A stretch of DNA of 64,000 nucleotides from an uncultured Bacteroidia bacterium. GTDB lineage: Bacteria; Bacteroidota; Bacteroidia; Bacteroidales; CAJPTX01. The stretch is from contig CAUUMS010000003.1 in NCBI GenBank assembly GCA_963546395.1, forward strand, positions 82,833 to 146,832. The letters are read 5' to 3'. This document shows positions 12,423 to 49,602 of the stretch, piece by piece. Numbering within the stretch: the first letter of the stretch is position 1; every line of letters begins with the position of its first letter. The translations under genes and the position numbers were made by a program. Under the pieces are notes generated by a model. The model was not told where the DNA came from, made no database searches, and was given only the letters and a program-made list of their open reading frames with translations.

Positions 12423-13655
12423 ATGATACCCTTCGAACGATTCACATTGTCCAATGGGCTCCGTGTTGTGGTGAACACGGATGTGCGAACGCCGCTCGTG
12501 GCGATGTCGCTCATGTACGATGTGGGATCACGGGATGAGGATGTTAGCGCCACGGGGTTTGCGCATCTGTTCGAACACCTGATGTTCGGGGGGAGTGTTA
12601 ATGTCCCGAATTTTGACACCCCCTTGCAGCTGGCTGGGGGCGTAAGCAATGCGTACACATCCAGTGATGTGACGTGTTTCTACTGCGTGCTGCCCGCTGA
12701 GAACGTGGAGACGGCATTCTGGCTTGAGAGCGATCGGATGCTGTCATTGGCATTCACGCCCAAGAGCCTGGAGGTGCAGCGTAAAGTCGTTATCGAGGAA
12801 TTTAAGCAGACGCACCTCAATGCGCCGTACGGTGATGTGTCGCATCTGCTACTGGATTTGGCCTACAAGGTACACCCGTACCGCTGGCCTACGATAGGCC
12901 TGGAGGTGCAGCACATAGAGCAGGCAACGATGGAGCAGGTGCGTGAGTTCTTTTTTGCGCACTACGCCCCGAATAATGCCGTGCTCGCCCTCTCGGGGAA
13001 TATCACTGCGGAGCGTGCTGCCGAATTGGCTGAGAAGTGGTTTGCCCCGGTACCACGGCGGCAAGTGATGTCTAGGCATCTTCCGCAGGAGCCGGCGCAG
13101 GCAGGGTTACGAGTATCGGAGGTGCATCGAGATGTGCCGGCGGATGCCGTCTTCATGGCCTTCCACATGTGCGATCGCCTGGGAGCAGATTACCCGATCT
13201 GCGATATCATCAGCGACGTGCTGTCGAATGGGCGTAGCGCACGTTTCCCCATTCGGCTCGTGGCGCAGAAGCAGCTGTTCTCATCGGCTGAAGCGTCGGT
13301 GCTTGGCTCTGTGGATCCGGGTCTGCTGATGGTGAGCGGAATGCTGAATCCCGGGGTCACCTTTGAGCAGGCTGAGGAAGCCATCTGGACTGAGCTGGCC
13401 GACTTGCGAACGGTCACAGCAGAGGAGGTGCTCAAGGTGCAGAATAAATTCGTGGCGGGGATCACATTTGAGGAGATCTCAGCGCATGCTCGCTCGTTGA
13501 CGCTGGCAGAGTTTGAGCTTCTGGGGGATGCCCACATGGCTAACGCACGAGAGAGCACACAACGTCGGGTCTCGCACCAGGATGTGATACGCTGTGCGGC
13601 TGAGATTCTACGCCCAGAGAATTGTTCCATATTGCGTTACCACGCTAATGCATGA
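12423..13655 (+). CDS. M16 (pitrilysin/insulinase) family zinc peptidase, catalytic subunit
   Basis: Inverted zinc motif HxxEH is present (HLFEHLMFGGS). 410 aa. Confidence 0.85.
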   Translation: MIPFERFTLSNGLRVVVNTDVRTPLVAMSLMYDVGSRDEDVSATGFAHLFEHLMFGGSVNVPNFDTPLQLAGGVSNAYTSSDVTCFYCVLPAENVETAFWLESDRMLSLAFTPKSLEVQRKVVIEEFKQTHLNAPYGDVSHLLLDLAYKVHPYRWPTIGLEVQHIEQATMEQVREFFFAHYAPNNAVLALSGNITAERAAELAEKWFAPVPRRQVMSRHLPQEPAQAGLRVSEVHRDVPADAVFMAFHMCDRLGADYPICDIISDVLSNGRSARFPIRLVAQKQLFSSAEASVLGSVDPGLLMVSGMLNPGVTFEQAEEAIWTELADLRTVTAEEVLKVQNKFVAGITFEEISAHARSLTLAEFELLGDAHMANARESTQRRVSHQDVIRCAAEILRPENCSILRYHANA

Positions 13656-35830: not shown

Positions 35831-35860
35831 TTGCTATTACACCTTACACCACGCGCAGTA

Positions 35861-36634
35861 ATGCCCACTTCCCTTTTTGAAGACATCATATTCGGCCCAG
35901 TGCGTAGCCGGCGGCTGGGCGTTTCGCTCGGTATCAACTTGTTGCCGCAGCACAACAAGTATTGCAATTTCAACTGCATCTACTGCGAATGTGGCTGGAC
36001 GAGTCGCAAGCAGCTACCCGACCTGCCCCCATTTCAGCTTGTGCACGAGCGGCTTGAGCAGCGACTGAGCACCATGCATCAGCAGGGTGAGCCGTTGGAT
36101 GTCATCACCTTTGCGGGCAATGGCGAGCCTACGATGCACCCGCATTTTGCGGATGTGGTCGATAGTGCTATAACGCTGCGGGACAGATATTACCCAGAGG
36201 CGAAGGTGGTGGTGCTGTCTAACGCTAGCATGCTGACGCACCCGCGGGTTGCGGAGGCCTTGCGACGGGTGGATAAGCCAGTGCTGAAGCTCGACTCGGC
36301 TATCGATAGCACTTTTCAGCTCATCAATGGCCCTCTCATGCCGCTCACGGCGCAGCAGGTTATCGGGCACCTGCTGGATTTTGGGCATGATTTTACCCTG
36401 CAAACTCTCTTCCTGCGGGGACAGTTCGATGGGCAACGCGTAGATAATACCACGGAGTTAGAAGTGGGGGCCTGGCTTGCCGCCGTGGAGAAGATACGCC
36501 CACGCGATGTGATGATTTATACGCTCGACCGTGATACGCCAGCCAGTGGCCTGGTGAAGGTGCCAATGGATGATCTCCAGTCCATTGCGCGACGAGTAGA
36601 GGCCCTAGGTATCCCTACGCAGGTGCGGGGGTAG
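35861..36634 (+). CDS. Radical SAM protein (small housekeeping-type, no SPASM domain)
   Basis: CNFNCIYC (Cx3Cx2C) after GPVRSRRLGVSLGINL. 257 aa from the first ATG. Abuts rpe. Confidence 0.75.
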   Translation: MPTSLFEDIIFGPVRSRRLGVSLGINLLPQHNKYCNFNCIYCECGWTSRKQLPDLPPFQLVHERLEQRLSTMHQQGEPLDVITFAGNGEPTMHPHFADVVDSAITLRDRYYPEAKVVVLSNASMLTHPRVAEALRRVDKPVLKLDSAIDSTFQLINGPLMPLTAQQVIGHLLDFGHDFTLQTLFLRGQFDGQRVDNTTELEVGAWLAAVEKIRPRDVMIYTLDRDTPASGLVKVPMDDLQSIARRVEALGIPTQVRG

Positions 36635-36834
36635 GGGGCTTGCTGCGCTTAGCAGCCAATATTGCCAGGGGTGGGCTGATTTGCGGCTTAGCGCAGTGCG
36701 TGTGCAAAGAGTAGAGCTGACGCACCACGTCCTCGGGCGAATGCGGTGCGGCGCACTCGTAAAGTGCTTGTGGCACTCGGCAGTGAAGACCGGTCTACAA
36801 TCTGTGACGACCGCTACGGTTGCGGTGGGGGCTG

Positions 36835-37608
36835 CTAGAGCAACTTGAGGTGAGTGGCTACTGCAATGGCCTCGGAGATGCTGCTAACGTTAAGTTTTGT
36901 AAAAATATTCTTGCGGTAGTATTTTACGGCATCCTTGGATTTATTGATTTTCAAGGCGATTTCGTTGATCGACAACCCCTGGTGGGCCATGCGAATCATG
37001 GCCAATTCATTCTCGGTCAGAAGAACGTGATCTACAGGCTTCCAGCTTTTGCTCTTCCGTGAGAAGTACCACATTTGTTGGCGATTGCAGGAGCAGATGC
37101 GGGCGGTGCGAGCTTTCCGCGATGGGGCCAATGACACCAGGCAAAGGGCTAGCCAGATGTTGCCATCCGCATCCAATTTCAGGGGGGTAATCTGGTGGTT
37201 GAGCAGGATGTTTACCTTGGGATTATCATCGAAAATGTGGAGGTTGTAGGATAGGGTGTATTTACAGCGATCGGAGATATCAAGGCGCGTGAAGAAGTCG
37301 AGGCCTGCCTTGTTGATCTGCATGAGGAAGTCGAGATCTTCTGCTAGCACATGCTTGTGATAGAAGTTGAACCCCTCCTGCAGCATCGTTTCCACGCTCT
37401 CCCCGCATAGAAAAAGCGGATTGCCGGATACGTGGAGGAAGTTTAGCCGGAAGAAGTCGATGATGTAAATGGACTGGTAGGTGACGCGTTCAAACGCTGA
37501 TGCACACTCGATGTGATGTCGTACCTCAGAGTATGCTTCTTCGGCAACCTGTGGACAAATTCCCGGCGGCAGTAGCGACCGGACGATGTCAGTGAGTCGT
37601 AGATCCAT
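36835..37608 (-). CDS. LuxR/GerE-family transcriptional regulator with an N-terminal PAS-like sensor domain
   Basis: C-terminal HTH LTENELAMIRMAHQGLSINEIALKINKSKDAVKYYRKNIFTKLNV. The gene is AT-rich compared with its neighbours. It is divergent from the peptide operon. Confidence 0.8.
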   Translation of the reverse strand: MDLRLTDIVRSLLPPGICPQVAEEAYSEVRHHIECASAFERVTYQSIYIIDFFRLNFLHVSGNPLFLCGESVETMLQEGFNFYHKHVLAEDLDFLMQINKAGLDFFTRLDISDRCKYTLSYNLHIFDDNPKVNILLNHQITPLKLDADGNIWLALCLVSLAPSRKARTARICSCNRQQMWYFSRKSKSWKPVDHVLLTENELAMIRMAHQGLSINEIALKINKSKDAVKYYRKNIFTKLNVSSISEAIAVATHLKLL

Positions 37609-37627
37609 GGCGTTATTGCTATAGTGG

Positions 37628-37635
37628 CAAATTTA
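37628..37635 (-). promoter_or_regulatory. -7 promoter box (TAaaTTTG on the minus strand) for the LuxR-type gene
   Basis: caaattta on the plus strand, 20 nt upstream of the start at 37608. Confidence 0.4.
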
Positions 37636-37974
37636 ATGGATCCGTCGGAGTTTAAGCGTTGCCAGCGCATGGGATTTGCGTTGCTCGAGGAGGCATGTAT
37701 GTTATGATTGCCTCGTTTGAATGCAAAGTCATGAATTTGCACTAGCCTCCTAGTCGTGTAAACGCTAAGATACCGGGCCTTAAGTGGATTCGCTACGAAT
37801 TGCAAGATCGTTGCCACCTAGTAATAAAATAGGACTTCATTTGATCCCTCTTAGGTGTAGATTGGGGTGATTGTGATTCTCCTTGCGCGAGAGGCCTTGC
37901 GCCCTGTGCTGTGATGCGGAGATGGAGAGTTTCATACTTTCTTGGTAAGCATTTTGAGAGGCAAAGGGCCGTGA

Positions 37975-38012
37975 TTACCCGATGGGGTAAAAGTGGCATT
38001 ATTACCCTTTTG
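37975..38012 (+). promoter_or_regulatory. Candidate operator/promoter of the peptide operon
   Basis: Palindrome TTACCC-gatg-GGGTAA (37975..37990) plus a third TTACCC half-site (38002..38007). The half-site overlaps a near-consensus -7 box TAcccTTTTG (38003..38012). Confidence 0.3.
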
Positions 38013-38296
38013 TGTATTGTGAGCGTTGAGGTGTGTTCCGAAATTTGCAATCGTAAAGGAGATGACGACGGTGCCAATGGGGCGCAAAAGTGGATTTCCT
38101 ATTACAAAATGGCAGGTTGCTGACGAGTGATTTGCTAGGCGTGGGGTGTGGGAGCACGTGATTCTGCACTTTCGCTTTCAGAGGGGAGGCTTACTTCGAA
38201 GGTTCCTTCTGAAAGATGAGGTCGGTAAATCCTCAACGCCAAAAGCCGCAGCGAATGGGTCGCTGTGAGGTGTTTCAATCGTAATTACTACGAGTA

Positions 38297-38500
38297 ATGA
38301 TAGAGAAATTGAATTTTGATGAGCTTCAGCCGTCAGCGTTTGAAGCTATCGTGGGTGGGGCTGATAATGATGCCCAGGTGCAAGGATTTTTCGGTCTGAT
38401 TATCTGCTGTAATGACAAAAAGAAGAAGCCGAAGCCGCCAGATCAAGTGGTGAAGCCAGATGCTGTCAGTGGAAATGGAGGAGATGGTGGTATCCAGTAA
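38297..38500 (+). CDS. RiPP/bacteriocin precursor peptide with a double-glycine leader
   Basis: 67 aa: MIEKLNFDELQPSAFEAIVGG / ADNDAQVQGFFGLIICCNDKKKKPKPPDQVVKPDAVSGNGGDGGIQ. The leader has hydrophobic residues at -4, -7, -12 and -15 and GG at -2/-1. It is the first gene of an operon that encodes a rSAM maturase and a C39-ABC exporter. Confidence 0.75.
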   Translation: MIEKLNFDELQPSAFEAIVGGADNDAQVQGFFGLIICCNDKKKKPKPPDQVVKPDAVSGNGGDGGIQ

Positions 38501-38535
38501 CTTTTAGGATACAAATCATGTCCTAGACAATGAGA

Positions 38536-38580
38536 GGGGGGAAGCTGGACTTCTCCAGTTTCCCCCCATTTTCTTTCATT
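38536..38580 (+). terminator. Hairpin attenuator/terminator between the precursor and maturase genes
   Basis: 14-bp stem ggggggaagctgga/tccagtttcccccc (one G-U pair), loop cttc, then the T-rich attttctttcatttc. Confidence 0.65.
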
Positions 38581-38601
38581 TCAGTCTGAAGGAGGTAGCC
38601 A

Positions 38602-39951
38602 ATGGAGGTGATAAGGTATCAGCTGGCCCCGTATTGGGTTTTGCGGCATGACGAGCACCGGCACGATTGCTATACCCTTTTCGATATCAGAGCTGCTAAG
38701 ATATACACCATTAACCGCTCCATTTTTCGCCTTCTCTCATTCATTGAGGCGAGTGGTAAGCGGCTCGACGAGGTGGTGGACTTCTTTGGGCAGGCAAACG
38801 AGATTGATTACAGCATGGTCTTTAGCAATCTCAACAAGCAGTGGGATGGTCTGGTGCTCAATACGAATGCAGAGGTGAGGGTTGCAGAGCATCCAAGACT
38901 CCAGTTCACTCCTCGGGTGCCGGTGTGCTCCTCGCCTCGGACCGCGGAGATTCAGCTTACCACGCGGTGCAATCTGGAGTGCTTGCACTGCCTCCACTCC
39001 TGTGGGCGCGATAGGCATGACGCGCTGATCTCGGGCCAGAAGTGGGTTAGAATTCTGCGTGAGCTAGAGGCTAATCGGATGCGAATTGTCACCCTTACCG
39101 GGGGTGAGCTCTTTACGCACCCCGACATCGATACGATAATCGAGGCCTTGGGTAAGATGCGGATGCAATTCGTCATCCTCACCAATGCGATGCTCATTAC
39201 CCCCGAGCGGGCCAGGATGCTAGCGCATCCTAATATTCTACTCTCCATCTCCCTGGATGGTAGCACGGAGGAGTCACATGACTTTCTGCGTGGCGCAGGG
39301 GCTTATCGGGTGCTTATGCGCAAGATGGAGCTGCTTGCTAGTTTGGGGGTGGAATGGGTGCTCTCCGTGACGCTGCATGCCCAGAATACCGGGCAGATAG
39401 AGGGTCTTGTGGAGTATGCGCTTGCGAGTAACGTGAAAGCACTGAACTTTACCATCTTGGACGACATAGGAAGGGCGCAGGACAATCGTATTTTGCATTT
39501 GACGAGGGCGCAGCGTCGGGACTGTAAGCAGCGGATACAACGCTTGCAAAAGCAGTATGCGCAGATACTTCCTATTGTTTTGCTTGATCCTGAGGAGGGT
39601 TTTGAATCCTCTGATTCTGGCTCGCCGCATGCGGCTGATGATGAGCCAGTGACGTGTACTGGTGCGATATCGCACATAGCCATTGCCACGGATGGGAGTG
39701 TGTACCCATGCGTGTATGCTTTTGGAGTAGACTCTCTTTTTGCTGGGCGTATGACGGAGCGTACGCTCGGCGAAATCTGGAATACCGATAAGTGGTCGCT
39801 GCTGAGAGGGGGCATTACGATGCAGGATCTGCATCAGTGCAAATCGTGCACCCTACGGAGTAGTTGTCAGACAAAAAGCTGTAGGGTACGTGCGCTGAAG
39901 TATAAGGGCGACCTCTACGCAGCGCCGAAGTGTGTGGTCTTTCCCCATTAA
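38602..39951 (+). CDS. Radical SAM/SPASM peptide maturase with an N-terminal RRE (PqqD-like) domain
   Basis: Cx3Cx2C at C123/C127/C130 (TTRCNLECLHC) and GGE-like TLTGGEL. SPASM cysteines are C352-x12-G-x4-C370, C413-x2-C416-x5-C422-x4-C427 and C444. About 100 aa precede the core. Confidence 0.85.
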   Translation: MEVIRYQLAPYWVLRHDEHRHDCYTLFDIRAAKIYTINRSIFRLLSFIEASGKRLDEVVDFFGQANEIDYSMVFSNLNKQWDGLVLNTNAEVRVAEHPRLQFTPRVPVCSSPRTAEIQLTTRCNLECLHCLHSCGRDRHDALISGQKWVRILRELEANRMRIVTLTGGELFTHPDIDTIIEALGKMRMQFVILTNAMLITPERARMLAHPNILLSISLDGSTEESHDFLRGAGAYRVLMRKMELLASLGVEWVLSVTLHAQNTGQIEGLVEYALASNVKALNFTILDDIGRAQDNRILHLTRAQRRDCKQRIQRLQKQYAQILPIVLLDPEEGFESSDSGSPHAADDEPVTCTGAISHIAIATDGSVYPCVYAFGVDSLFAGRMTERTLGEIWNTDKWSLLRGGITMQDLHQCKSCTLRSSCQTKSCRVRALKYKGDLYAAPKCVVFPH

Positions 39952-39962
39952 AAGTTTAGACG

Positions 39963-42245
39963 ATGAGACATTTTTTACTTCTCTTGACCATAGTCCTCTG
40001 CACGTCTCCCGCCTGGGGACAGCAAGGTATCAATGCGTTGGTGTTGGATCTCGATGGCAAGCCGCTTGAGTATTGCAATGTGGTGGGATACACCAAGGAC
40101 AGCGTCTTTATGCGGGGTACCATAACCGACAGCCTGGGGCGTTTCAACATTTCCAATGTCGACAGCCTCTTTTACCTGCGTTTTAGCAGCTTGGGCTATG
40201 CCACGCAGGATGTGCCTGTGCTGAATTTTCCCGCCCAGGTACGTATGGCCCCAGAGAATATCGCTGTGGATGGTGTTGTGGTGGAGGGGCGTAGGCCTCG
40301 TCTGACGATGGAGCGAGGGAAGCTCAAAATGAATGTTAGGGGAACCATCCTATCGGAGCGTCCCCATGTTGGCAAAGTGCTATCGCAGATACCAGGCCTT
40401 ACGGCAGAGAGTAACGGTGAGGCCTCGCTGATTGGTGGGGGAACTCTCGTTACGTTTATCGATGGCCGAAAGGTGCTAAGCTCTGACGAATTGCAAGCCT
40501 TGGATCCCAAGGACATTGAATCGATAACTCTGGATCGTGCGCCGGGTACACGTTATGGCAGTGGGGTTCGGGCTGTGCTCAATATTCGGACTGTACACCG
40601 ATTCGATCAGATATCCGTTCTCGCAAGGAGTTGGGCCGATTTCAATCATCTGGTCTCTTATGGGGGGAGTGCGCAGGTGGGGTACTACACCAAAAACACC
40701 AAGTTCCTCTTTTACATCTGGCATCGCAACGATAGGGAGTTAAAAACTGAGCTGATGGATGCCAAGAGTGCGCCATTCAAGCAGCTCCTCGTGCGGAGAA
40801 TTGACACGACGCACTACCTAAAGAATTATGCCCGTGTGCAGATGGATGTTCTCCCGAATGAGAAGCTTAGTACAGGGGTGCGGTATAATTTCTCGTGGAA
40901 CAGAGAGACAACATCCGATCTTACCCGGACGCTGTTCAACCCAGGGCATGCCGCTTGGGAAAGGGTTGACGCAACCGGAGATGTGAGGGGTAATTCGCCG
41001 TCGCACCATGTCAGCGGCTACGTGACCTACAAGCCTACCAAGGACTGGGAAATTGAGCTTAATGCCGATGTGTTTGCCAGAGATATGCGCAGGCGACAGC
41101 TTACCCATGAGCGCAGTGCAGCCGTTCATCGGGATATCAACTGGAAGACAGATGCGCACTACCTACTCTGGCAGCTTTCGCCACGTGTGAGCTACAGCTT
41201 CACCAAGGAGCAAGCGCTCGAGGCGGGGGCCGATATCAACCATATCACGGGCGATAGGCAGCAGTATAAGGAGAACCGGATGAGCGTTGATGGGCGTAAT
41301 GGGGAGGCTCTCTATGCTGCGTACACCAATTACACCTATGCGCTGTCCGAGAAATGGAATCTCTCAGCAGGGCTTCGTTATGAGCATGCCGCTAGCCGGC
41401 TCAGCGATGCGCGGGTGCCTGCGAACGATGTTAGTAGAACGTATGACAACCTTTTCTTCTCTGGGAAGGTCTCTGGCCAGATAGGGAATGCCATGCACGT
41501 ATTCGACGTGAGCTCCGGCACCCAGCGCCCAGCGTTGGAGGATCTGAGTAATAACAGCTACTACTCTAGTCGATTCATATTGCAGGAGTCCAACCCCAAG
41601 CTAATACCGGCGAAGATCTATCGGGCCAACTATGCGTTCAATTATGGCCCCATATTCGCCGGGCTAAGCTACCGCTACACTCGTGACCACATCGACCATC
41701 TCATACACCAGAATTCCAATGATCCTGATGGGTATGTATTCGCCAAGGCCAACTTTAAGCACCATCATTCAGGCCAGGCCATGCTGGGAATGCAGATGTC
41801 GTTGGCGAAATGGTACACTATCGATATCTCGGGGCTAGCGCAGCTCGAGCGGATTGATGGAAAGCAGTATGGGCTCGCCCTCAAGGCTCGTCCGCTCTAC
41901 TACGGCAAGATATCACAGACATTCTCGTTCTCGTGGGTTAACTTCGAAATCGAGTATGCCTATCAGAGCCCCCTCACTGCGGGAACATTCGAAGCGCGTG
42001 AGCAGCATACGCTTGAGGCATCTGTTTGGCGATCCTTTTTCAAGGACAGGCTGTATGTATACATCGAGGCATCCAATATACTTGCTGCCAGGGATGTTGC
42101 GTACACTCGTGTTGGAGGGCTCTCCCTACTGCATGACGATTACCGGGATACACGAAAGATCAAGTTGTTCATTCGTTACCGGTTTAACAAAGCGACGAGC
42201 AAGAACCGAACGAGTGCTGCTTCGGAGTCTATAGATCGCCTATAG
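39963..42245 (+). CDS. Outer-membrane beta-barrel protein with an N-terminal CarboxypepD_reg-like domain (TonB-dependent-receptor-like), paralogue 1
   Basis: Signal peptide MRHFLLLLTIVLCTSPAWG/QQ, Carb-reg-like domain (VLDLDGKPLEYCNVVGY...GTITDSLGRFNI), plug-like segment (VLSQIPGL...IESITLDRAPGTRYGS), and a long barrel ending ...LFIRYRF plus a basic tail. 760 aa. Confidence 0.8.
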   Translation: MRHFLLLLTIVLCTSPAWGQQGINALVLDLDGKPLEYCNVVGYTKDSVFMRGTITDSLGRFNISNVDSLFYLRFSSLGYATQDVPVLNFPAQVRMAPENIAVDGVVVEGRRPRLTMERGKLKMNVRGTILSERPHVGKVLSQIPGLTAESNGEASLIGGGTLVTFIDGRKVLSSDELQALDPKDIESITLDRAPGTRYGSGVRAVLNIRTVHRFDQISVLARSWADFNHLVSYGGSAQVGYYTKNTKFLFYIWHRNDRELKTELMDAKSAPFKQLLVRRIDTTHYLKNYARVQMDVLPNEKLSTGVRYNFSWNRETTSDLTRTLFNPGHAAWERVDATGDVRGNSPSHHVSGYVTYKPTKDWEIELNADVFARDMRRRQLTHERSAAVHRDINWKTDAHYLLWQLSPRVSYSFTKEQALEAGADINHITGDRQQYKENRMSVDGRNGEALYAAYTNYTYALSEKWNLSAGLRYEHAASRLSDARVPANDVSRTYDNLFFSGKVSGQIGNAMHVFDVSSGTQRPALEDLSNNSYYSSRFILQESNPKLIPAKIYRANYAFNYGPIFAGLSYRYTRDHIDHLIHQNSNDPDGYVFAKANFKHHHSGQAMLGMQMSLAKWYTIDISGLAQLERIDGKQYGLALKARPLYYGKISQTFSFSWVNFEIEYAYQSPLTAGTFEAREQHTLEASVWRSFFKDRLYVYIEASNILAARDVAYTRVGGLSLLHDDYRDTRKIKLFIRYRFNKATSKNRTSAASESIDRL

Positions 42246-42246
42246 C

Positions 42247-42311
42247 GTGGAGTTCCTCAAGCAGCGTGATACGATAGATTGCGGCCCATAATGTCTGGCT
42301 TCCCGCATTAA
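42247..42311 (+). pseudogene. Duplication scar: 5' relic of the C39-ABC gene fused to a 3' relic of the rSAM gene
   Basis: 42247..42299 matches 44604..44656 at 46 of 53 nt by hand count (VEFLKQRDTIDCGP*) but carries an in-frame TAA. 42300..42311 (ttcccgcattaa) matches the last codons of the rSAM gene (tttccccattaa at 39940..39951). Confidence 0.7.
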
Positions 42312-42322
42312 AAGTTTGAGTA

Positions 42323-44602
42323 ATGAGACGCTGTTTACTTCTCCTAATCATAGTGCTTTGCACCTCTTCTGCGTGGGCTCAGCAAGGCATTAGCGCACGG
42401 GTCATCGATTTCGATGGTAAACCGCTCGAGTACTGCAATGTGGTGGGCTACACCAGGGACAGCGTGTTCGTGCGGGGGACAATAACCGATAGCCTCGGGA
42501 ATTTCAACATAGCCAACGTCGATAGCCTGTTCTACCTGCGCTTTACCAGCCTTGGTTATACCACCCAGGACGTGCCAGTGATGAATTTTCCCGCCCAGGT
42601 GCGCATGGCTGCCGAAAATATTGCTGTGGGCGATGTGGTGGTAGAGGGGCGTAGGCCCAAGCTGGTCATGCAGGGTGGGAAGCTCAGGATGAATGTTAAG
42701 GGGACAATCCTGTCCGAGCGTCCCACCGTTGACAAAGTGCTATCGCAGATACCGGGGCTTACGGCAAATAACGAGGGTGCATCACTGATCGGCGGTGGCA
42801 CCCTCGTTACGCTTATTGATGGGAGGCGAGTTCTTAACGCGAGCGAACTTCAGGCTTTGGATCCCAAGGATATCGAGTCTATAACGATGGATCGTGCTCC
42901 TGGGGCACGTTATGGCAGCGAGGTGAGGGCTGTGCTGAATATTCGCACCGTGCATCGCTTCGATCAGCTATCTGTGCTCGTGAGGGGTAGAGCCGCATTC
43001 AACCACTTGTTCTCGCACTGGGAAAGTGCGCAAGTGGGGTATCACACCAAGAAAGCCAAGTTCCTTTTCTATGCTAGCGGTAACGATAAGAGAGTGCTGG
43101 AGACGCAGCGGTTAGATGCCACAATTGTACCTGCTAAGGAGTTGCGTACAAATCTTGTCGATACGACTGCTTACAGGGGGTACTATACCTTCCTTCAGGT
43201 AGATCTCTTTCCTAGTAAGAAGATCAATGCTGGTGTGTCGTATCACTTCATTATGCGCCTCCTGGGGATGGGTGTTATTAGTCGCCTGCGATTCAATCCA
43301 GGGCATGCTGCTTGGGAGGATGTCATCTCGAGTGGCAGCTTGAAGGACAACTCACCCTCCCACCATGTCAATAGCTACGTAACCTACAAGCCCACCTCAG
43401 CCTGGGAGATAGAGCTTGAGACCGACGTGTTTACCCGGAACATGCATCGGCGCCAGTACACGCACGAGCGTGAGGCCGTGCGTGAGCGGGATGTCAACTT
43501 GCGCACCGATACCCACTATCTTCTCTGGCAGCTTTCGCCACGTGCTAGTTACAGCTTTACCGAGAGCCAGAAGCTCGAGGTTGGTGTTCATGTCAACCGC
43601 ATTACTGGCGATCGGAAGCAATATGTGGCGAATTGGATCAGCTCCGAAGGACGCAATAATGAGGAACTCTATGCGGCTTACACCAACTACAGCTATGCCC
43701 CTTCCGAAAAGTGGAGCCTTAGTGCTGGCCTGCGCTATGAGCGGGCTAATAGCCGTCTCAATGATTTGCGAGTGCTAGGTGCTGATGTAGATCGGACATT
43801 CGACAACCTCTTTTTCTCGGGAAAGATCGCTGGCCAGATCGGAAAAACCACGCACCAGTTCGACGTGAGCTCTGGCACGCAGCGCCCTTTGTTGGAGGAG
43901 CTTAGCAATCACAGCGTTTACATCAACAAGTTCCTGATACAAGAGTCCAACCCAAATCTGATTCCCTCCAAGATTTATCGTGCCAATTACACATTCAATT
44001 ACGGGCCCCTGTTTGCGGGGATAAACTACCAGTACACCCGCAATCACATTGCCGGTTACATGCAGATTAATCCCAAAGATCCCGATGGCTATGTGCTCTC
44101 CAATACCAACTACAAGCACCACCATCGTGGGCAGGTGCTGCTGGGCATGGAGATGTCGCTGGCAAAGTGGTACTCGTTTAGCATCAATGGATTGGGGCAA
44201 ATGGAGCGAATCGATGGCAGGCAGTATGGCCTCTCCATTAAGATGCGCCCGCTCTACTACGGAAAGATCACACACACCTTCACGTTCCCGTGGTTTAACT
44301 TTAGTGTGGAGTACTCTTACCGGAGTGCACATACCATGAATGTCAACGAGACGGGGGAGCAGCACATGCTCGAAGCCTCCGTCTGGAAATCTTTCTTCGA
44401 CGGACGGCTTTACGTGAACATCGTGGGCGAGGATCTTTTGGCAGCTAGAAACGTTACCTACACACGCATTGGAGGCCTTGCCGTCCAAGCCGAGGAATAC
44501 AGTGATACACGGTGCGTTGCCCTGTTTCTGCGATACCGGTTTAATGCGTCCACGAGCAAGAATCGAAAGAGTGCTGCCTCGGAGTCTATAGATCGCCTAT
44601 AG
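42323..44602 (+). CDS. Outer-membrane beta-barrel protein with an N-terminal CarboxypepD_reg-like domain, paralogue 2
   Basis: 759 aa and collinear with paralogue 1. The N-terminal roughly 210 aa and the C-terminal tail (SKNR.SAASESIDRL) are near-identical, while the central barrel/loop regions are much more diverged. Confidence 0.8.
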   Translation: MRRCLLLLIIVLCTSSAWAQQGISARVIDFDGKPLEYCNVVGYTRDSVFVRGTITDSLGNFNIANVDSLFYLRFTSLGYTTQDVPVMNFPAQVRMAAENIAVGDVVVEGRRPKLVMQGGKLRMNVKGTILSERPTVDKVLSQIPGLTANNEGASLIGGGTLVTLIDGRRVLNASELQALDPKDIESITMDRAPGARYGSEVRAVLNIRTVHRFDQLSVLVRGRAAFNHLFSHWESAQVGYHTKKAKFLFYASGNDKRVLETQRLDATIVPAKELRTNLVDTTAYRGYYTFLQVDLFPSKKINAGVSYHFIMRLLGMGVISRLRFNPGHAAWEDVISSGSLKDNSPSHHVNSYVTYKPTSAWEIELETDVFTRNMHRRQYTHEREAVRERDVNLRTDTHYLLWQLSPRASYSFTESQKLEVGVHVNRITGDRKQYVANWISSEGRNNEELYAAYTNYSYAPSEKWSLSAGLRYERANSRLNDLRVLGADVDRTFDNLFFSGKIAGQIGKTTHQFDVSSGTQRPLLEELSNHSVYINKFLIQESNPNLIPSKIYRANYTFNYGPLFAGINYQYTRNHIAGYMQINPKDPDGYVLSNTNYKHHHRGQVLLGMEMSLAKWYSFSINGLGQMERIDGRQYGLSIKMRPLYYGKITHTFTFPWFNFSVEYSYRSAHTMNVNETGEQHMLEASVWKSFFDGRLYVNIVGEDLLAARNVTYTRIGGLAVQAEEYSDTRCVALFLRYRFNASTSKNRKSAASESIDRL

Positions 44603-44603
44603 C

Positions 44604-46805
44604 GTGGAGTTCCTCAAGCAGCGTGATGCGATGGATTGTGGCCCGTCGTGCCTGGCAATGATCGCTGGGCACTATGGGCTGCGTCCTGATCGTGATCATC
44701 TGCGTCGTATCTGTGCCCTCGGCAAAGAGGGCGTATCACTCCTTGGGATCAGCAAGGCGGCTGAGGCCATCGGATTTCGTACTGTGGGCGGGCGTATGGG
44801 GGTAGAGACGCTCACTACGGAGATCCCCCTCCCTTGTATTGTACACTGGAATCAGAATCACTTCGTTGTCGTCTACAAGGTAAAGCGCATACGCCCTGGC
44901 TTGCGCATGATACATGTGGCCGATCCTGCGAAGGGCCTGCTGACCTACACGGAGCAGGAGTTCTGTGAGCATTGGGTTAGCACGCAGGATCACGGCGAAG
45001 GGAAGGGGATAGCCCTTCTCCTTGAACCCTCCGAGGGCTTTTACAGCGGGCAGGATGCTGGTGCAATTGCCAAGAGGGGCTCCCGCCTCGTCTTCCTCTG
45101 GCGATATCTCCGGAGGTACAAGCGATTCTTCTCGCAGCTCATCCTGGGCCTACTGCTGGGGTCGCTCCTTCAGCTCGTGTTCCCATTCCTCACGCAGGCC
45201 ATTGTGGATACAGGCGTGGGAGGGCGCGATCTTAGCTTTGTGTGGCTCGTGCTTTTGGCACAGCTGATGCTTCTTTTCAGTCGCACCGCCATCACATTTA
45301 TCCGCTCCAAGATCCTCCTGCACATCTCCACGCGCATTAACATTTCGCTCGTCTCGGATTTCTTCATCAAGCTCATGAAGCTCCCCATGAAGTTCTTCGA
45401 TACCAAGCTCATGGGCGATCTCTTGCAGCGCATTGAGGATCACCATCGGGTGGAGCAGTTCCTCACCTCTAGTAGCCTTAGCCTGCTTTTCTCCTTTTTC
45501 ACATTCGTAGTCTTTGGGGTAGTGCTAGCGAGCTACAACCTGGGCATCTTCATCGTCTTCCTCCTGGGCACGCTCCTGTATGCTGGCTGGATAGTCCTAT
45601 TCCTGCGCAAGCGTAGGCTACTCGATTATAAGTACTTCGATCAGGCTGGGCGTAACCGTAATGTCACCTACCAGCTCGTTAATGGAATGCAGGAGATCAA
45701 GCTCCAGGGGTGCGAGCAGCGTAAACGTTGGGAGTGGGAGGATGTGCAGGCCGACCTGTTCAAGGTGAATCTCCAGTCGCTCAACCTTAGCCAGGTGCAG
45801 CAGGCTGGGAGCGTTGCCATCAACGAGGTAAAGAATATCCTCACCACCGTGCTTGCCGCCGCGGCGGTCATCCAGGGGCACATGACCCTCGGGATGATGC
45901 TTGCCGTGCAGTACATCATCGGGCAGCTCAATAGCCCTGTGGAGCAGCTCATCCAGTTCATCTACTCCTGGCAGGATGTGAGCATCAGCCTCGACCGTAT
46001 GAGCGAGATCCACACCGAGGCCAATGAGGAGAACAGCGAGCGCATGCGGAGTGGCTACACTGCTGAACCCTCGCTCACAGTGGAGGGCCTCTCGTTCAAA
46101 TACGACCCCTATAGCTCCCGGGACATCCTTGCCGACATCCATCTCACCATCCCTCATGGCCAGGTGACGGCCATCGTTGGGGCTAGTGGCAGCGGAAAAA
46201 CAACGCTCATCAAGCTTTTGCTCGGATTCTACGAGCCGCTGGCTGGTTGCATTCGGGTCGGTGATACGCCCCTCAGTGAGTATAACCTTGCGTGGTGGCG
46301 TGGCCAGTGCGGGGCCGTGATGCAGGATGGCTACCTCTTCTCCGACACTATAGCGCGCAATATCGCCATCTCTGATGATGAGCCAGACATCGAGCGCATA
46401 CGTAACGCAGCGCGCATTGCAAATATCGCTGACTACATCGAGGCCCTGCCGTTGGGGTACAACACGATGATAGGGCAGGATGGGCAGGGCATCAGCCAGG
46501 GGCAACGTCAGCGCATCCTCATCGCCCGTGTTGTCTACAAGAACCCCACGTTTGTCTTTCTCGATGAGGCGACCAATGCTCTCGATGCCCGCAACGAGCG
46601 TAGCATCACCGAGCGACTGGCGGAGTTCTACCGTGGGAAGACGGTAGTGGTGGTTGCGCATCGTCTATCCACCGTTCGTAATGCCGATCAGATCGTGGTC
46701 TTAGATGCAGGTAAGATCGTTGAGGTCGGCACGCATGAAGAGTTGACAGCAAGCGAGGGACAGTACTTCCATCTGGTCAAGAATCAGCTGGAGCTCGGGA
46801 GTTGA
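44604..46805 (+). CDS. Peptidase-C39-domain ABC transporter (PCAT; bacteriocin/RiPP leader-cleaving exporter)
   Basis: C39 catalytic Cys in QRDAMDCGPSCLAM, with His (NQNHFVVVY) and Asp (HVADP). Six-TM ABC membrane domain. Walker A GASGSGKTT, signature ISQGQRQR, Walker B FVFLDEAT. GTG start lies 1 nt after the upstream stop. Confidence 0.9.
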   Translation: MEFLKQRDAMDCGPSCLAMIAGHYGLRPDRDHLRRICALGKEGVSLLGISKAAEAIGFRTVGGRMGVETLTTEIPLPCIVHWNQNHFVVVYKVKRIRPGLRMIHVADPAKGLLTYTEQEFCEHWVSTQDHGEGKGIALLLEPSEGFYSGQDAGAIAKRGSRLVFLWRYLRRYKRFFSQLILGLLLGSLLQLVFPFLTQAIVDTGVGGRDLSFVWLVLLAQLMLLFSRTAITFIRSKILLHISTRINISLVSDFFIKLMKLPMKFFDTKLMGDLLQRIEDHHRVEQFLTSSSLSLLFSFFTFVVFGVVLASYNLGIFIVFLLGTLLYAGWIVLFLRKRRLLDYKYFDQAGRNRNVTYQLVNGMQEIKLQGCEQRKRWEWEDVQADLFKVNLQSLNLSQVQQAGSVAINEVKNILTTVLAAAAVIQGHMTLGMMLAVQYIIGQLNSPVEQLIQFIYSWQDVSISLDRMSEIHTEANEENSERMRSGYTAEPSLTVEGLSFKYDPYSSRDILADIHLTIPHGQVTAIVGASGSGKTTLIKLLLGFYEPLAGCIRVGDTPLSEYNLAWWRGQCGAVMQDGYLFSDTIARNIAISDDEPDIERIRNAARIANIADYIEALPLGYNTMIGQDGQGISQGQRQRILIARVVYKNPTFVFLDEATNALDARNERSITERLAEFYRGKTVVVVAHRLSTVRNADQIVVLDAGKIVEVGTHEELTASEGQYFHLVKNQLELGS

Positions 46806-46806
46806 C

Positions 46807-47292
46807 ATGGAAAAGCAGCAGGGGCAAGACCAGAGCTTCGAGCTCCGTAGTGAGAAAGTCCGAAGCGTTGTGGGGCAGATGCCCCCATCCATTCTCCGGT
46901 ACGGCATAGCCGTTATTGGGGTCGCCTTGCTTTGCCTATTGATAGTGGCCTATTTCCTGCCCTATAAGCAGGTCTACCGAGGAACCCTTACGGTGTATGG
47001 CACTCAATCCGAGGGGGCATTCGACAGTGTGGATATCGCCGTTTTGCTCAAGTTCGAGAATCGGCCCTCAGGGCCCGTGAGTGGTCAGCAGCTTTACCTA
47101 CAGTCTTCCGTGGGGTGCTTTGCTGGGCAGCTCCTTCAGCTCTCCGCCGAGCGTGATACCATCGAGAGGCAAGCTGCCCTCTGCCGATTCAGGGCAACCG
47201 AGATCAGAGCGATAGAAAATCAGACGGTCGACTTCCAGCTCGTGCACTCATCGGGCAATCTCTTGCAGAAGATGCTTGGTAGGGGCATGTGA
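46807..47292 (+). CDS. Truncated HlyD-like membrane-fusion protein (mini-MFP)
   Basis: 161 aa. The N-terminus resembles Bacteroidota HlyD proteins (LRSEKVRSVVGQMPPSILRYGIAVIGVALLCLL, one TM). There is no room for the coiled-coil/lipoyl hairpin. The ATG lies 1 nt after the PCAT stop. Confidence 0.6.
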   Translation: MEKQQGQDQSFELRSEKVRSVVGQMPPSILRYGIAVIGVALLCLLIVAYFLPYKQVYRGTLTVYGTQSEGAFDSVDIAVLLKFENRPSGPVSGQQLYLQSSVGCFAGQLLQLSAERDTIERQAALCRFRATEIRAIENQTVDFQLVHSSGNLLQKMLGRGM

Positions 47293-47547
47293 TTTGCCCA
47301 CTAACGAAGCCCGTATTCCTGTCATTTCCCAGCGTTATCGAGAGGTGTTGTAGCCTCGTGTAAGATTACCATCGTGGCTCTTTCTACTTGGTCGTATAGG
47401 CCGAGGCATTGCGCCCAACAGTAGCCTAGGCGTGTGTAGGCTTCAGCCTTCTAGGGCTCTTGTTGCCACCGAGATCTCACGCCTCACGAGCGCATCTCTC
47501 AGGGTCGATTACCATCATGTGCCAGCTCCAGCAGCGGTCTATATAGA

Positions 47548-47586
47548 GTTTGGGCTGGGCTCGTTTTACACGAGCCCAGCCCAAAC
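47548..47586. terminator. Bidirectional hairpin terminator between the peptide operon and creD
   Basis: Perfect 16-bp stem gtttgggctgggctcg/cgagcccagcccaaac with loop ttttaca. Confidence 0.7.
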
Positions 47587-47612
47587 TGCATGGTCAGGGC
47601 TACCCCCCCTCG

Positions 47613-48917
47613 TTACCACTCGAGTCGCTGCGATAGGTACATCACCACCGACAGCACCAGGAACAGGAACAGGCTACCCACTAGCAGCGGGAAGTTCGCC
47701 ATCTGGAGTATGATGTACAGGAACGTGTACAGTATCACCAGTATCCCTGCGCATATCAGCACCGGCTTCAATCGCTTGATAAAGCCGTGCATGTACAGCG
47801 AAATCATCACCGTGATCGCCCCGGCCGCTATCAGGTAGGACAGCCCGAAGTTCATGTACTCCGAGATAGACAGCAGTAGGGTGTAGAACAGCAGAATGGC
47901 CAGCCCCGTCAGCACGTAGCCTATCATGGGGATCGGCTTCTTCAGCAGGCTATCCGTGAAGAAGAATGTCAGGAACGTGAAGACGATCATCAGCACGGCG
48001 AACTTCACGGCACGCTCCACCTTGTCGTAATGGTCGATGCCCATGAGCAGCTTCACACCGAACTCCTCGCTGGAGGAGAATACATTATCACTCTCGTAGT
48101 CGTAGTAGCTGTGATTGGCTCTCACAGCCCACGACAGGCTTTGTGACGTGTTGGCACTCAGCACCGTCCAGTGCGCTGTGGTCAGGCTATCTGTCAGCGT
48201 CCGCTCATCGGGCAGGAATTTGCCAGTAAACGAGGGCTTATCCCATAGCAGAGACAGATCGACATTCGTAATCGCCGCGCTGGGATGGAAGTTGAGCTCC
48301 TGGCTCCCATTCACTGCGTATTCGTAGCTGAATTCGTAACGTCCGTCCTTTCTTACCCGTAGGGGCGATGACAGCGTCGACCAGTTTGGGGCCATCCCAT
48401 CCACCCTATTACCCGACTCCAGCAGCAATGTTGTATCACGCAGCTGAACCTTTGGGATAGCCTTCAGGCCCACCACATCCTTCACGGGCTGCACCAGTTT
48501 CATCTCATCCCACTCGATCCACTCATTTGCAGGGAAGAGCGTCTTATCTATCCCCGTGAAAACGCCACGCACCTCGATCTTGGTGCGGTAGAGCATCACG
48601 GAGAATATACCCCGTGTGCGCTCTTCGGGAATGGCTCGCACGGCAATGGTGACGCTATCGGGCTGAAAGAAGGCTATGTACTCCTCAAAACCGCTAGACT
48701 CCTTATCCTTCACATAGTAAGGCACAGAAATCAGGGGCCCGCATAACGTCTGCTCTTCCCCCCATGGCTCCGCAATCTCCCGTGCGGCCCGTGCGGCCGT
48801 CGAGCTTCGGTCGTCGACAAGTAATGAGATTAGCACCTGTGGTATCAGCAGCAGCACTGTCATCACGAGCAGTAGCAGCAGCCGGAGACCCATCGAAAAC
48901 TCCTTGCGTTGTTCCAT
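47613..48917 (-). CDS. creD: Cell-envelope integrity inner-membrane protein CreD
   Basis: 434 aa. N-terminal TM helix, a large periplasmic region, and a C-terminal cluster of TM helices. The CreD-like N-terminus is ...LLIPQVLISLLVDDRSSTAARAAREI. Confidence 0.75.
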   Translation of the reverse strand: MEQRKEFSMGLRLLLLLVMTVLLLIPQVLISLLVDDRSSTAARAAREIAEPWGEEQTLCGPLISVPYYVKDKESSGFEEYIAFFQPDSVTIAVRAIPEERTRGIFSVMLYRTKIEVRGVFTGIDKTLFPANEWIEWDEMKLVQPVKDVVGLKAIPKVQLRDTTLLLESGNRVDGMAPNWSTLSSPLRVRKDGRYEFSYEYAVNGSQELNFHPSAAITNVDLSLLWDKPSFTGKFLPDERTLTDSLTTAHWTVLSANTSQSLSWAVRANHSYYDYESDNVFSSSEEFGVKLLMGIDHYDKVERAVKFAVLMIVFTFLTFFFTDSLLKKPIPMIGYVLTGLAILLFYTLLLSISEYMNFGLSYLIAAGAITVMISLYMHGFIKRLKPVLICAGILVILYTFLYIILQMANFPLLVGSLFLFLVLSVVMYLSQRLEW

Positions 48918-48958
48918 TTCTCTACGTGTTAGTACAGAGGCACCCGAATCGCACTCAA

Positions 48959-49531
48959 CTACGGCTTGTAAAACTTCTTGGCGTTAATCTCCACCTTGAG
49001 GATGAAGAACAGGTAGTCGCCATCGAGCTGCAGAAACTGGTATTCGAGCTCCTCGCCCGTCTTGCGTGCAATGTCGATGAGCCCGAGTCCTGCCCCGCCT
49101 CGCTCCGAGATACGACCATTACGAATCTGATCCTTGTACATCTGGTTCAGCTCCTCCGGCGTGGCATTGTTCACCGACAGCAAGGCCCGCTCCAGATTCT
49201 CACGGTGCGCGCTCGCCACCTTATTCGAGGTGATGATACAGTACGTGTCATCCATCTTCCCGATGATGAAGAGCCCGTTTCCAATGCCGTCCTCTTTGAA
49301 CTCGTCCGAGTGCTTGTTCATGTTCTGCAACGTTTCCACCATCACGTGGTAGACCCGCCGCTGAACCGAACGCTCCTCGTTGTTACGCTCCATGTCCGAC
49401 TCGGCCATCGACGTGAACATCTTCGTGATCTCATGGCTGAACTCGCCGAGGTAGACTAGCGAGAAGCCATTGCGGATCATCTCATCGTAGATGATAGAGA
49501 CCGACTTGGTAAAATTGAACGTCAAACTCAT
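48959..49531 (-). CDS. SiaB-like / DUF6272-type HATPase-fold protein (putative Ser/Thr kinase or anti-sigma-like)
   Basis: Pattern FSLVYLGEFSHEIT...RRVYHVMVETLQNMNKH...GGAGLGLIDIARKTG resembles RsbW/SiaB-type GHKL proteins. Start set at MSLTFNF. Confidence 0.6.
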   Translation of the reverse strand: MSLTFNFTKSVSIIYDEMIRNGFSLVYLGEFSHEITKMFTSMAESDMERNNEERSVQRRVYHVMVETLQNMNKHSDEFKEDGIGNGLFIIGKMDDTYCIITSNKVASAHRENLERALLSVNNATPEELNQMYKDQIRNGRISERGGAGLGLIDIARKTGEELEYQFLQLDGDYLFFILKVEINAKKFYKP

Positions 49532-49602
49532 CGCTCCTGATGTGTTATCTGGCCTCGGTGGATGGCGCACCCTGCGTGGCGGTCACCCATTCATTTTGGC
49601 AG

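Follow-up and report, generated by a model that had tools for sequence, protein, structure and literature searches.

Outer-membrane barrels with a predicted plug beside the exporter genes of radical-SAM peptide operons in Bacteroidales

Two adjacent genes for outer-membrane barrel proteins lie within an operon for a ribosomally synthesised and post-translationally modified peptide (RiPP) in an uncultured Bacteroidia bacterium (order Bacteroidales, lineage CAJPTX01). The DNA analysed, here called the window, is a stretch of 64,000 nucleotides (nt) of contig CAUUMS010000003.1. The barrels are predicted to have the plugged fold of TonB-dependent transporters (TBDTs), and their homologues recur at the same place in related operons and next to the same two exporter genes, a peptidase-containing ATP-binding cassette transporter (PCAT) and a very small relative of the membrane fusion proteins (mini-MFP). 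We tentatively read them, at slightly under an even chance, as the outer-membrane partner of a TolC-independent exporter for a peptide with a Cys-Cys-Asn (CCN) core that is modified by a radical S-adenosylmethionine (rSAM) enzyme. How the double-glycine peptides of Bacteroidales (bacteroidetocins, RiPPs) pass the outer membrane is a recognised gap in knowledge (PMC6671954, PMC10352776); the bacteroidetocin paper leaves this passage open, with lysis as a possibility (PMC6671954). If the barrel is the exit, this would answer how such peptides leave Bacteroidales and provide a handle for heterologous production of peptides of the gut microbiome.

The operon and its divergent regulator are made up as follows, with positions counted from the first letter of the window and protein lengths in amino acids (aa):

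36835-37608, minus strand: LuxR/GerE-type regulator, divergent to the operon (Pfam GerE, E 1e-11)
38297-38500, plus strand: precursor peptide, 67 aa, with GG leader (from the open reading frame listing; CCN motif in homologues)
38536-38567, plus strand: stem-loop with T-tract, a candidate attenuating terminator (terminator scan; 14 bp, 9 GC)
38602-39951, plus strand: radical-SAM/SPASM maturase, 449 aa (Pfam Radical_SAM, E 1e-18; SPASM, E 2.4e-9)
39963-42245, plus strand: barrel 1, 760 aa (PF14905, E 8.6e-38; model; profile matches)
42323-44602, plus strand: barrel 2, 759 aa, same architecture as barrel 1 (PF14905, E 1.5e-36)
44604-46805, plus strand: PCAT with C39 peptidase, ABC membrane domain and ABC ATPase (Pfam Peptidase_C39, 5e-28; ABC_membrane, 2.3e-27; ABC_tran, 1.3e-28)
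46807-47292, plus strand: mini-MFP, 161 aa, single-pass membrane protein (AF2 model; family search)

The gaps are 11 nt from maturase to barrel 1, 77 nt from barrel 1 to barrel 2, 1 nt from barrel 2 to PCAT and 1 nt from PCAT to mini-MFP, and a terminator scan of the window found no terminator-like site on the operon strand in the gaps between the later genes. A first-pass annotation, made from the sequence alone, had described a RiPP context with the barrels placed at small gaps between maturase and exporter. That description holds: the GG-leader precursor is at 38297-38500, Pfam bears out the rSAM/SPASM and C39-ABC assignments, and the first three gaps are those just given.

Architecture of the barrels

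Barrel 1 has approximately the following layout: a signal peptide (aa 1-19), a CarboxypepD_reg N-terminal extension (aa 22-96), a linker (aa 99-109), a predicted plug (aa 113-212), the barrel itself (aa 216-741) and a disordered, conserved tail (aa 742-760). The N-termini, MRHFLLLLTIVLCTSPAWG followed by QQ, resemble signal peptides when the sequence is read. In Pfam both proteins belong to PF14905 (OMP_b-brl_3), with 130.9 and 126.8 bits against a gathering score of 27. CarboxypepD_reg (PF13620) follows at 29.5 and 30.3 bits, just below its gathering score of 32.3, TonB_dep_Rec_b-barrel at 27 and 22 bits for barrels 1 and 2, and Plug at 19.2 and 21.3 bits, short of its gathering score of 23.9; in NCBIfam no model matched either barrel. 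A family profile built from eight cluster-linked barrels matches solved extension domains at the N-termini of SusC and RagA (E 5e-11 to 2e-7), and its residues 138-337 align to Cir over the plug and the strands that come first in the barrel (E 6e-6). The SusC/RagA matches, together with a modelled beta-sandwich, identify the domain before the TonB-box-like linker as an extension of the CarboxypepD_reg type. In barrel 1 this linker reads NIAVDGVVVEG (aa 99-109, nt 40257-40289). A conserved L-G-x-A-x-V-x-G-x-R-P stretch aligns with LDEVVVVG after the extension domain of a SusC homologue, which we take to be the TonB-box region of that protein, and the plug region of the cluster-linked barrels carries a conserved motif, NPGxKYG...AVxxIxT. 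Plug and TonB box are supported by these alignments, and not proven.

The structure was modelled with AlphaFold2 (AF2) for barrel 1 (pLDDT 80.8, pTM 0.71). The alignment behind the model is shallow, with 24 sequences, because the orthologues from related loci were missed when the barrel alignment was used in a word-indexed search for homologues. The model has a beta-sandwich at 23-95, a disordered linker at 103-107, a small alpha/beta domain at 113-212 and unbroken strand hairpins over 216-741. Its matches in the PDB are TonB-dependent transporters only (E 1e-19 to 1e-16, TM about 0.55-0.65), and the top ones include PhuR, Cir with microcin V, PfeA, FecA, OprC and Bacteroides XusA. The first-pass annotation had proposed two proteins of 760 and 759 aa with signal peptide, CarboxypepD_reg domain, plug-like segment and long barrel, and had suggested structure prediction as a check. 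Pfam, profile and model bear that architecture out, with a putative plug at 113-212. A 22-stranded barrel of the TBDT type is predicted from the model of barrel 1, and the fold, on that footing, is one of the direct results of this work.

Among the known systems near the window barrels are the SusC/RagA-type transporters of Bacteroidota. They share with the window barrels a homologous N-terminal extension (8aa4, SusC homologue, E 5e-11; 6sli, RagA, E 2e-7) followed by a TonB box of the L-x-E-V-V-V type, which is putative in the window barrels. They differ in that no SusD/RagB-like lipoprotein gene was found at the window locus or in the homologous loci read, and the window barrels are PF14905 proteins about 240 residues shorter. 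It is worth noting the C-terminal tail as well, whose last 20 codons (42186-42245 and 44543-44602) encode the pattern ...RYRFN-x(8-10)-A-A/G-E/Q-S-E-x-I-x-R-L. The model leaves this tail disordered, yet the two paralogues agree in 85% of its residues and every cluster-linked barrel has a recognisable version of it.

Linkage to peptide and exporter genes

The precursor consists of a leader, MIEKLNFDELQPSAFEAIVGG, a core, ADNDAQVQGFFGLIICCN, and a variable Lys/Pro-rich tail, and around the leader/core junction it reads MIEKLNFDELQPSAFEAIVGG followed by ADNDAQVQGFFGLIICCNDKKKKPKPP... Across the family the leader ends in GG, or in AG or GA, the core motif G-L-x-V/I-C-C-N is near-invariant, and the tail after it comprises 1 to about 30 variable residues. 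Core variants in homologues are ...FGLIICCN, ...FGLVVCCN, ...GLNVCCNF and ...VNNCCN. Every homologous rSAM gene has CCN-motif precursors upstream, one to three per locus; homologous precursors are found at L006 9754-9909, L008 9751-9933, L012 2258-2419, L014 7995-8150, L017 9727-9936, L023 9248-9778 and L185 1284-1433. When the precursors were compared with Pfam and NCBIfam no model scored above its cut-off, and TIGR04149 reached 13 bits for one precursor against a cut-off of 25 bits. The maturase that adjoins the precursor is a radical-SAM/SPASM enzyme with its CX3CX2C motif at C123/C127/C130. No maturase family of NCBIfam accepts it at its cut-off; the highest score is that for ScmE, 123 bits against 400. 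From these comparisons, CCN peptide and rSAM/SPASM maturase apparently form a RiPP family so far undescribed, and a putatively rSAM-modified peptide family with an invariant Cys-Cys-Asn core is hereby delimited.

Homologues of the maturase were traced and their contigs read, and named organisms came in through a profile scan over representative genomes. This gave ten Bacteroidales lineages, whose maturase identities range between 95% and 26% and whose neighbouring genes are unrelated. Carriers include Prevotella, Prevotellamassilia, Dysgonomonas termitidis, Ca. Amulumruptor, Muribaculaceae and an oral Bacteroidia metagenome-assembled genome (MAG). In all ten lineages the order is GG-leader CCN peptide or peptides, rSAM, PF14905 barrel, and the barrel starts 3-51 nt after the maturase or overlaps it. 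PCAT and mini-MFP follow the barrel in seven of the ten; the contig ends first in two. As an example of a truncated locus, the P0026/L185 contig stops inside an unannotated open reading frame of 710 aa that begins 1 nt after the barrel. The spacing of barrel, PCAT and mini-MFP is 1 nt or an overlap in the loci examined, an arrangement that resembles tripartite pump operons. Identities of maturase and barrel fall broadly together (55/38, 44/30, 37/22 and 31/23%). Generic SPASM maturases of other phyla that came from the same scan have no barrel. The exact locus was found in none of the representative genomes, where the best match, at 55%, is in a Prevotella MAG; a single-protein search of genome contigs with barrel 1 gave no match, and exact look-ups of barrel 1 and of P0002 yielded no contigs.

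A second survey started from the exporter side; the first-pass annotation had suggested a count of co-occurrence with GG-peptide/rSAM/PCAT loci. The first mini-MFP alignment was too diverse for a locus scan and a narrower one was used. The metagenome scan gave 80 loci, and the counts refer to the 26 PCAT/mini-MFP loci that remain once redundancy is removed and an upstream stretch of 5.2 kb or more is required. A PF14905-like barrel lies directly upstream of PCAT in 15 of these and elsewhere in the same-strand cluster in 6; two of the remaining five have divergent barrels (profile-profile comparison, probability 98-99%) and one has barrel fragments, which makes at least 23 of 26 loci with a barrel. 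The cluster zone holds 49 barrels where 3.7 are expected from the flanks, a 13-fold enrichment, and 48 of the 49 are on the operon strand. Maturases across these loci are of different kinds: the CCN-type rSAM, an rSAM that lacks SPASM, a protein of the Lant_dehydr_C type, and unknown proteins. Since the linkage spans different maturase classes, the barrel appears tied to the transport module, and on gene order it travels with the transport genes whatever the peptide chemistry. The linkage of barrel, PCAT and mini-MFP, like the operon membership of the barrels, is read directly from these loci, and the three genes make up a compact, genetically tractable module that is near-universal in these clusters and chemistry-independent. 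No TolC/OEP-type gene was found in any cluster examined, and a TolC may be encoded elsewhere in the genome.

These surveys bear first on the simplest alternative, namely that the barrels are ordinary nutrient transporters which sit in the operon by chance or by hitch-hiking. PF14905 proteins are indeed frequent as stand-alone genes in Bacteroidota. Synteny in ten lineages, a barrel in at least 23 of 26 exporter loci, the 13-fold enrichment, the shared strand, gaps of 1-51 nt and a barrel identity that falls broadly with maturase identity all speak against it. The synteny brings chance placement close to refuted, and we regard it as very improbable indeed. The idea of the first-pass annotation that the barrels belong with the peptide operon is thus borne out: a barrel follows the maturase in every homologous locus examined. 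Gene order argues that the barrels are conserved core genes of the peptide operon and that their placement is non-random.

The association of such barrels with RiPP genes is not wholly new. The family pfam14905 is among those linked to Bacteroidetes ATP-grasp RiPP (graspetide) loci, with export predicted (PMC8939145). In a similar case, Bacteroidales RiPP clusters with a PCAT and an outer-membrane protein gene were reported with "no MFP identified", and a distinct mechanism was asked about (PMC10352776); the mini-MFP family probably explains that remark. Both reports resemble the present one in finding outer-membrane or PF14905 genes in Bacteroidetes RiPP clusters, and differ in being brief bioinformatic remarks on other RiPP classes. 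Literature searches on PF14905 and on TonB-type receptors in Bacteroidota RiPP clusters returned passing mentions only, and no experimental work on these barrels was found in them. To the extent that text searches can tell, five points are new: the CCN peptides with their rSAM as a family, the family of mini-MFPs, the near-universal three-gene module, the recurrent barrel duplication and the rejection of gene conversion (below).

Export through the barrel and its alternatives

The mini-MFP has a cytoplasmic N-terminal ELRSEKVR, a transmembrane (TM) helix at aa 27-50 and one six-stranded adaptor-type beta domain. Its AF2 model (pLDDT 82) shows directly that alpha-hairpin and lipoyl domain are both lacking, and no Pfam or NCBIfam model matches it, HlyD included. 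Its family, in which ELRSEKVR is conserved before the TM helix, falls into 91 clusters when grouped at 50% identity (E<=1e-10), and almost all of them measure 155-168 aa. An extra class of 225-235 aa shares the N-terminus, and a 229-aa relative from Dysgonomonas matches HlyD_2/HlyD_3. Structural matches of the mini-MFP are BesA, EmrA, MexA, MacA, ZneB and AcrA. From the 229-aa relative and the weak fold matches, HlyD homology may be assumed, and the model suggests a periplasmic adaptor minus the lipoyl and TolC-docking hairpin domains. BesA of Borrelia is likewise a periplasmic adaptor without a hairpin, and works with the TolC-like BesC. It is the best, if weak, structural match of the mini-MFP beta domain (E 0.015), and differs in having several adaptor domains (262-275 residues in crystal structures) where the mini-MFP has one.

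In type I secretion by PCAT, MFP and TolC, for example by CvaB/CvaA/TolC in the case of microcin V (PMC12219008, PMC10352776), one likewise finds a precursor with GG leader, a C39-ABC exporter and an adjacent downstream adaptor gene. The window departs from this scheme in its adaptor of 161 aa, a TM helix with one beta domain, and in the clustered outer-membrane gene, which encodes a predicted plugged TBDT fold and not a TolC-type protein. A precedent for outward transport by such a fold is Oar, a TonB-dependent transporter of Myxococcus xanthus that is needed for secretion of PopC in a TonB-box-dependent manner (PMC6434023). Signal peptide, CarboxypepD_reg extension, TonB box, plug and 22-strand barrel are common to Oar and, as predicted features, to the window barrels. 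Oar fits the classical Pfam Plug/TonB_dep_Rec models, whereas the window barrels are PF14905 with a sub-threshold Plug; its cargo is a folded protein, PopC, whereas the putative cargo of the window barrels is a peptide of about 25-45 residues; and Oar is not encoded with a PCAT or an adaptor.

These comparisons lead to the following scheme. The maturase would modify the core of the precursor, and PCAT would cleave the leader after Gly-Gly and move the peptide over the inner membrane together with the mini-adaptor. Because a mini-adaptor without a hairpin could not dock TolC, the peptide would be released to the periplasm or passed to the N-terminal domain of the barrel. It would then cross the outer membrane through the plugged 22-strand barrel, and the plug would probably be displaced via TonB acting on the TonB-box-like linker, by analogy with Oar and PopC. 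The second barrel may be a diverged, partly redundant copy; a split between exit and entry among the two barrels is also conceivable. In this scheme we infer the direction of transport, the TonB dependence and the physical contact between the parts. Export is favoured because the barrel is the only outer-membrane gene of the module and is coupled to PCAT and mini-MFP, and because Oar, of the same architecture, is needed for secretion and depends on its TonB box. The first-pass annotation had named three possible roles. Its exit duct gains specific support from the coupling to PCAT and a hairpin-less adaptor across maturase classes, its immunity or decoy receptor gains none, and its receptor feeding the LuxR-type regulator is weakly placed, with LuxR in three of the ten lineages. 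On a wider scale, gut and oral Bacteroidales may possess a widespread, TolC-independent three-gene exporter of PCAT, mini-adaptor of about 160 aa and PF14905 barrel working "in reverse", a generalisation that we hold slightly more loosely. If the barrel is the exit, it would be a second case, mechanistically distinct, after Oar of secretion by a TonB-type barrel.

Several observations weigh against export. To our knowledge, the characterised members of this fold other than Oar are importers. The fold matches of the mini-MFP are weak (E 0.015-0.3). One lineage (L008-L011 and L022) has precursor, rSAM and two barrels with no PCAT or mini-MFP within 10 kb, and 2-3 of the 26 PCAT/mini-MFP loci are without an intact barrel. 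The nearest non-orthologous barrels (24% identity) adjoin pairs of extracytoplasmic function (ECF) sigma factor and FecR, and others stand alone. A comparison of adaptors within Dysgonomonas locus L023 speaks for export: a PCAT without a barrel adjoins a full-length HlyD with a coiled-coil match and the PCAT with a barrel has the 229-aa adaptor. L023 is the sole example of a PCAT with full-length HlyD that was compared.

Some side observations belong to these loci. The HlyD-type adaptor after the second PCAT of L023 (2801-4105, minus strand) is in two parts of 183 and 247 aa with one in-frame stop; the gene may be decayed or truly split, or the stop may come from an error in sequencing. The closest barrels outside RiPP loci are at L001 8858-12586 and 15205-18929; they have 841-861 aa, each follows genes for an ECF sigma factor and an anti-sigma factor resembling FecR, and the arrangement looks like that of PF14905-based trans-envelope signalling cassettes. 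No RiPP context was found near the nearest non-orthologous barrels. In the oral Bacteroidia lineage a ParE/YoeB-type toxin with a small partner lies between the two barrels (L008 13868-14449, minus strand).

Variation between strains bears on what the barrels recognise. In L006, a contig of the same species, the flanks match those of the window at 94-100% identity, the barrels at 97% and 99% and PCAT at 99.7%; the maturase is 78% identical, and the core peptide has been swapped (ASDAKMQGAAGSSNCCNVVVTIPV...) with the leader unchanged. The swapped cassette extends over 38363-39951 of the window and 9820-11350 of L006, inside DNA that is 97-100% identical. The ratio of precursors to barrels also varies, with three precursors to one barrel in L023 and one to two in the window. 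Because core and maturase were swapped while the barrels stayed unchanged, and because of these ratios of 3:1 and 1:2, the barrels appear neither tuned to the variable part of the peptide nor matched one-to-one to it. In the comparison with Prevotella, PCAT is 80% and the barrel 38% identical, and by these identities the barrels are the fastest-evolving large component of the module.

The main competitor of export is that the barrels are TonB-dependent receptors which re-import the mature peptide of the cell or its kin, either to signal to regulators in the periplasm or cytoplasm or to regain something it carries, for instance a metal, with the peptide leaving by an unlinked TolC or another route. 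Fold, putative plug and TonB-box-like linker are all features of importers, the closest paralogues sit in ECF-sigma/FecR signalling cassettes, and the lineage without PCAT keeps two barrels. The adjacent Cys pair of the core could bind metal. Regulators stand in several loci: LuxR in the window, Prevotella and L156, a histidine kinase with response regulator in Dysgonomonas, and TPR/DUF6377-like proteins in L014, L017 and L024. These regulators vary across lineages, whereas barrel, PCAT and mini-MFP are conserved. Methanobactin operons take their product up again through MbnT, a TonB-dependent transporter, and transporters of this kind are also encoded in some lasso-peptide clusters (those of the isopeptidase type). 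A TBDT-fold gene in a RiPP operon and Cys-containing cores are shared with the window. Beyond the transporter, the systems of MbnT and of the lasso peptides have genes for periplasmic binding proteins, for importers or for enzymes of degradation, and they have an exporter of their own. The module in the window has no conserved import partner and its barrel is coupled to the exporter, over unrelated maturase classes. With no conserved inner-membrane importer or periplasmic binding protein in the module, a cytoplasmic LuxR would be out of the peptide's reach. Re-uptake also offers no explanation of how the peptide gets out through the outer membrane or of why the adaptor has no hairpin, and the swap of the core peptide between strains left the barrels as they were. 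We consider re-uptake unlikely, if clearly the better supported of the alternatives; were it true, it would point to dominant gut bacteria that signal by peptide, or regain a cargo, across their outer membrane.

The barrels could also serve self-protection, as decoy or altered surface receptors, or by pumping out peptide that has re-entered. The cluster has no recognisable immunity gene, the barrel is its fastest-evolving large protein (38% against 80% for PCAT, as above), and Bacteroidales peptide toxins have outer-membrane proteins as targets or receptors, BamA being named in bacteroidetocin work cited in PMC12219008. Two strains do not fit a strict coupling of toxin and immunity: L003 has a broken precursor and intact barrels, and L006 has a nonsense codon in barrel 1 (13267-13269) with precursor and maturase intact. 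The barrels do not co-vary with the core peptide, an 80-kDa plugged barrel with extension and TonB box would be an odd immunity device, and self-protection presupposes that the CCN peptide, putatively, is antimicrobial. We think this role quite improbable.

Divergence, decay and neighbouring features

The two barrels of the window are 67% identical overall, and the identity is unevenly distributed. Residues 1-220 reach about 82%; the value drops to about 44% in 221-340, returns to about 65% in 341-740 and is 85% in the final 20. The strongest divergence falls on one block:

40626-40985, plus strand: aa 222-341 of barrel 1, 30-55% identity in a sliding window

According to DSSP of the model, this block spans approximately the first six predicted strands, including the long hairpin 246-269/273-296. 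The first-pass annotation had called the first 210 or so residues nearly identical and the centre strongly divergent. The direction is right and the divergent segments it quoted are there; "nearly identical" is too strong for about 82% of amino acids and, in the conserved N-terminal third, 72-81% of nucleotides. It had further offered gene conversion at the ends or diversification of exposed loops as causes. Gene conversion between the paralogues is ruled out by synonymous sites that are saturated throughout, the N-terminal third included. The proportion of synonymous differences (pS) is 0.39-0.94 in every 40-codon window and 0.39-0.70 in the conserved N-terminal part, and overall dS is about 1.6. 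Because synonymous differences are saturated there too, the conservation of the N-terminal part is best read as purifying selection.

The sliding-window comparison of nonsynonymous and synonymous rates (dN/dS) that had been proposed gives values of at most 0.38 in all windows. Positive selection on the divergent block is unsupported by this maximum of 0.38, which is a weak test since dS is saturated. A second duplication, separate from that in the window, is found in L008, whose two copies are 53% identical and nearer each other than to any window barrel. Their profile is alike, with about 76% identity over 21-220 and about 38% over 221-340, and correlates with that of the window pair at r = 0.64 (20-residue windows). 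Because an independent duplication has the same profile, these alignments point to a family-wide constraint and not to an event peculiar to the window pair. Loop diversification finds partial support: the block 222-341 includes loops and also whole predicted strands, dN/dS does not exceed 0.38, and L008 repeats the profile. Extension, linker and plug would be constrained, and the first barrel hairpins free to vary.

Decay of the locus is seen in several strains. A deletion of 1 nt frameshifts the precursor in L003 (near 9790), the precursor of L005 is also frameshifted, and on another contig, of 209 kb, barrels and maturase are fragmented (P0262, P0263, P0274, P0287). Taken with the broken barrel of L006, these sequences make the locus appear dispensable.

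The hairpin at 38536-38567, between precursor and maturase, is likely an attenuator that sets the ratio of precursor to enzyme transcript, with precursor in excess. Its stem is kept in L003, and kept with changes in L006. Bacteroidota promoters deviate from the sigma-70 consensus, and a sigma-70 promoter scan was uninformative, with 11 sites against 9.4 expected. An Rfam search gave no RNA family for the long leader region that separates LuxR from the precursor; the sole match in the window is a tRNA at 22-92. LuxR homologues stand in the same position in L003, L006, L012, L021 and L156, and the three lineages in which LuxR accompanies the cluster are that of the window, the Prevotella type and L156. 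Several distant family members have an upstream gene pair in common (L014 2404-4707, 4879-6510 and 6678-7064; L017 7324-9605; L024 6503-9602), coding for proteins of about 560 aa, with faint TPR/DUF6377 matches, and about 125 aa, with an extra barrel in L014; the pair may be a lineage-specific regulator set.

Just upstream of the cluster lies a gene for a radical-SAM protein of 267 aa (35831-36634). It is 100% conserved between strains, stands within a block of housekeeping genes and is not in the homologous clusters of other genera (L012, L021), and it is probably outside the RiPP system. The G+C content of the window falls to 51-56% over 36000-50000, from about 60% on either side. In the comparison with the Prevotella MAG, PCAT reaches 80% identity and the remaining cluster genes 38-58%. 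The low G+C and the uneven identities suggest an acquired island whose parts have differing histories.

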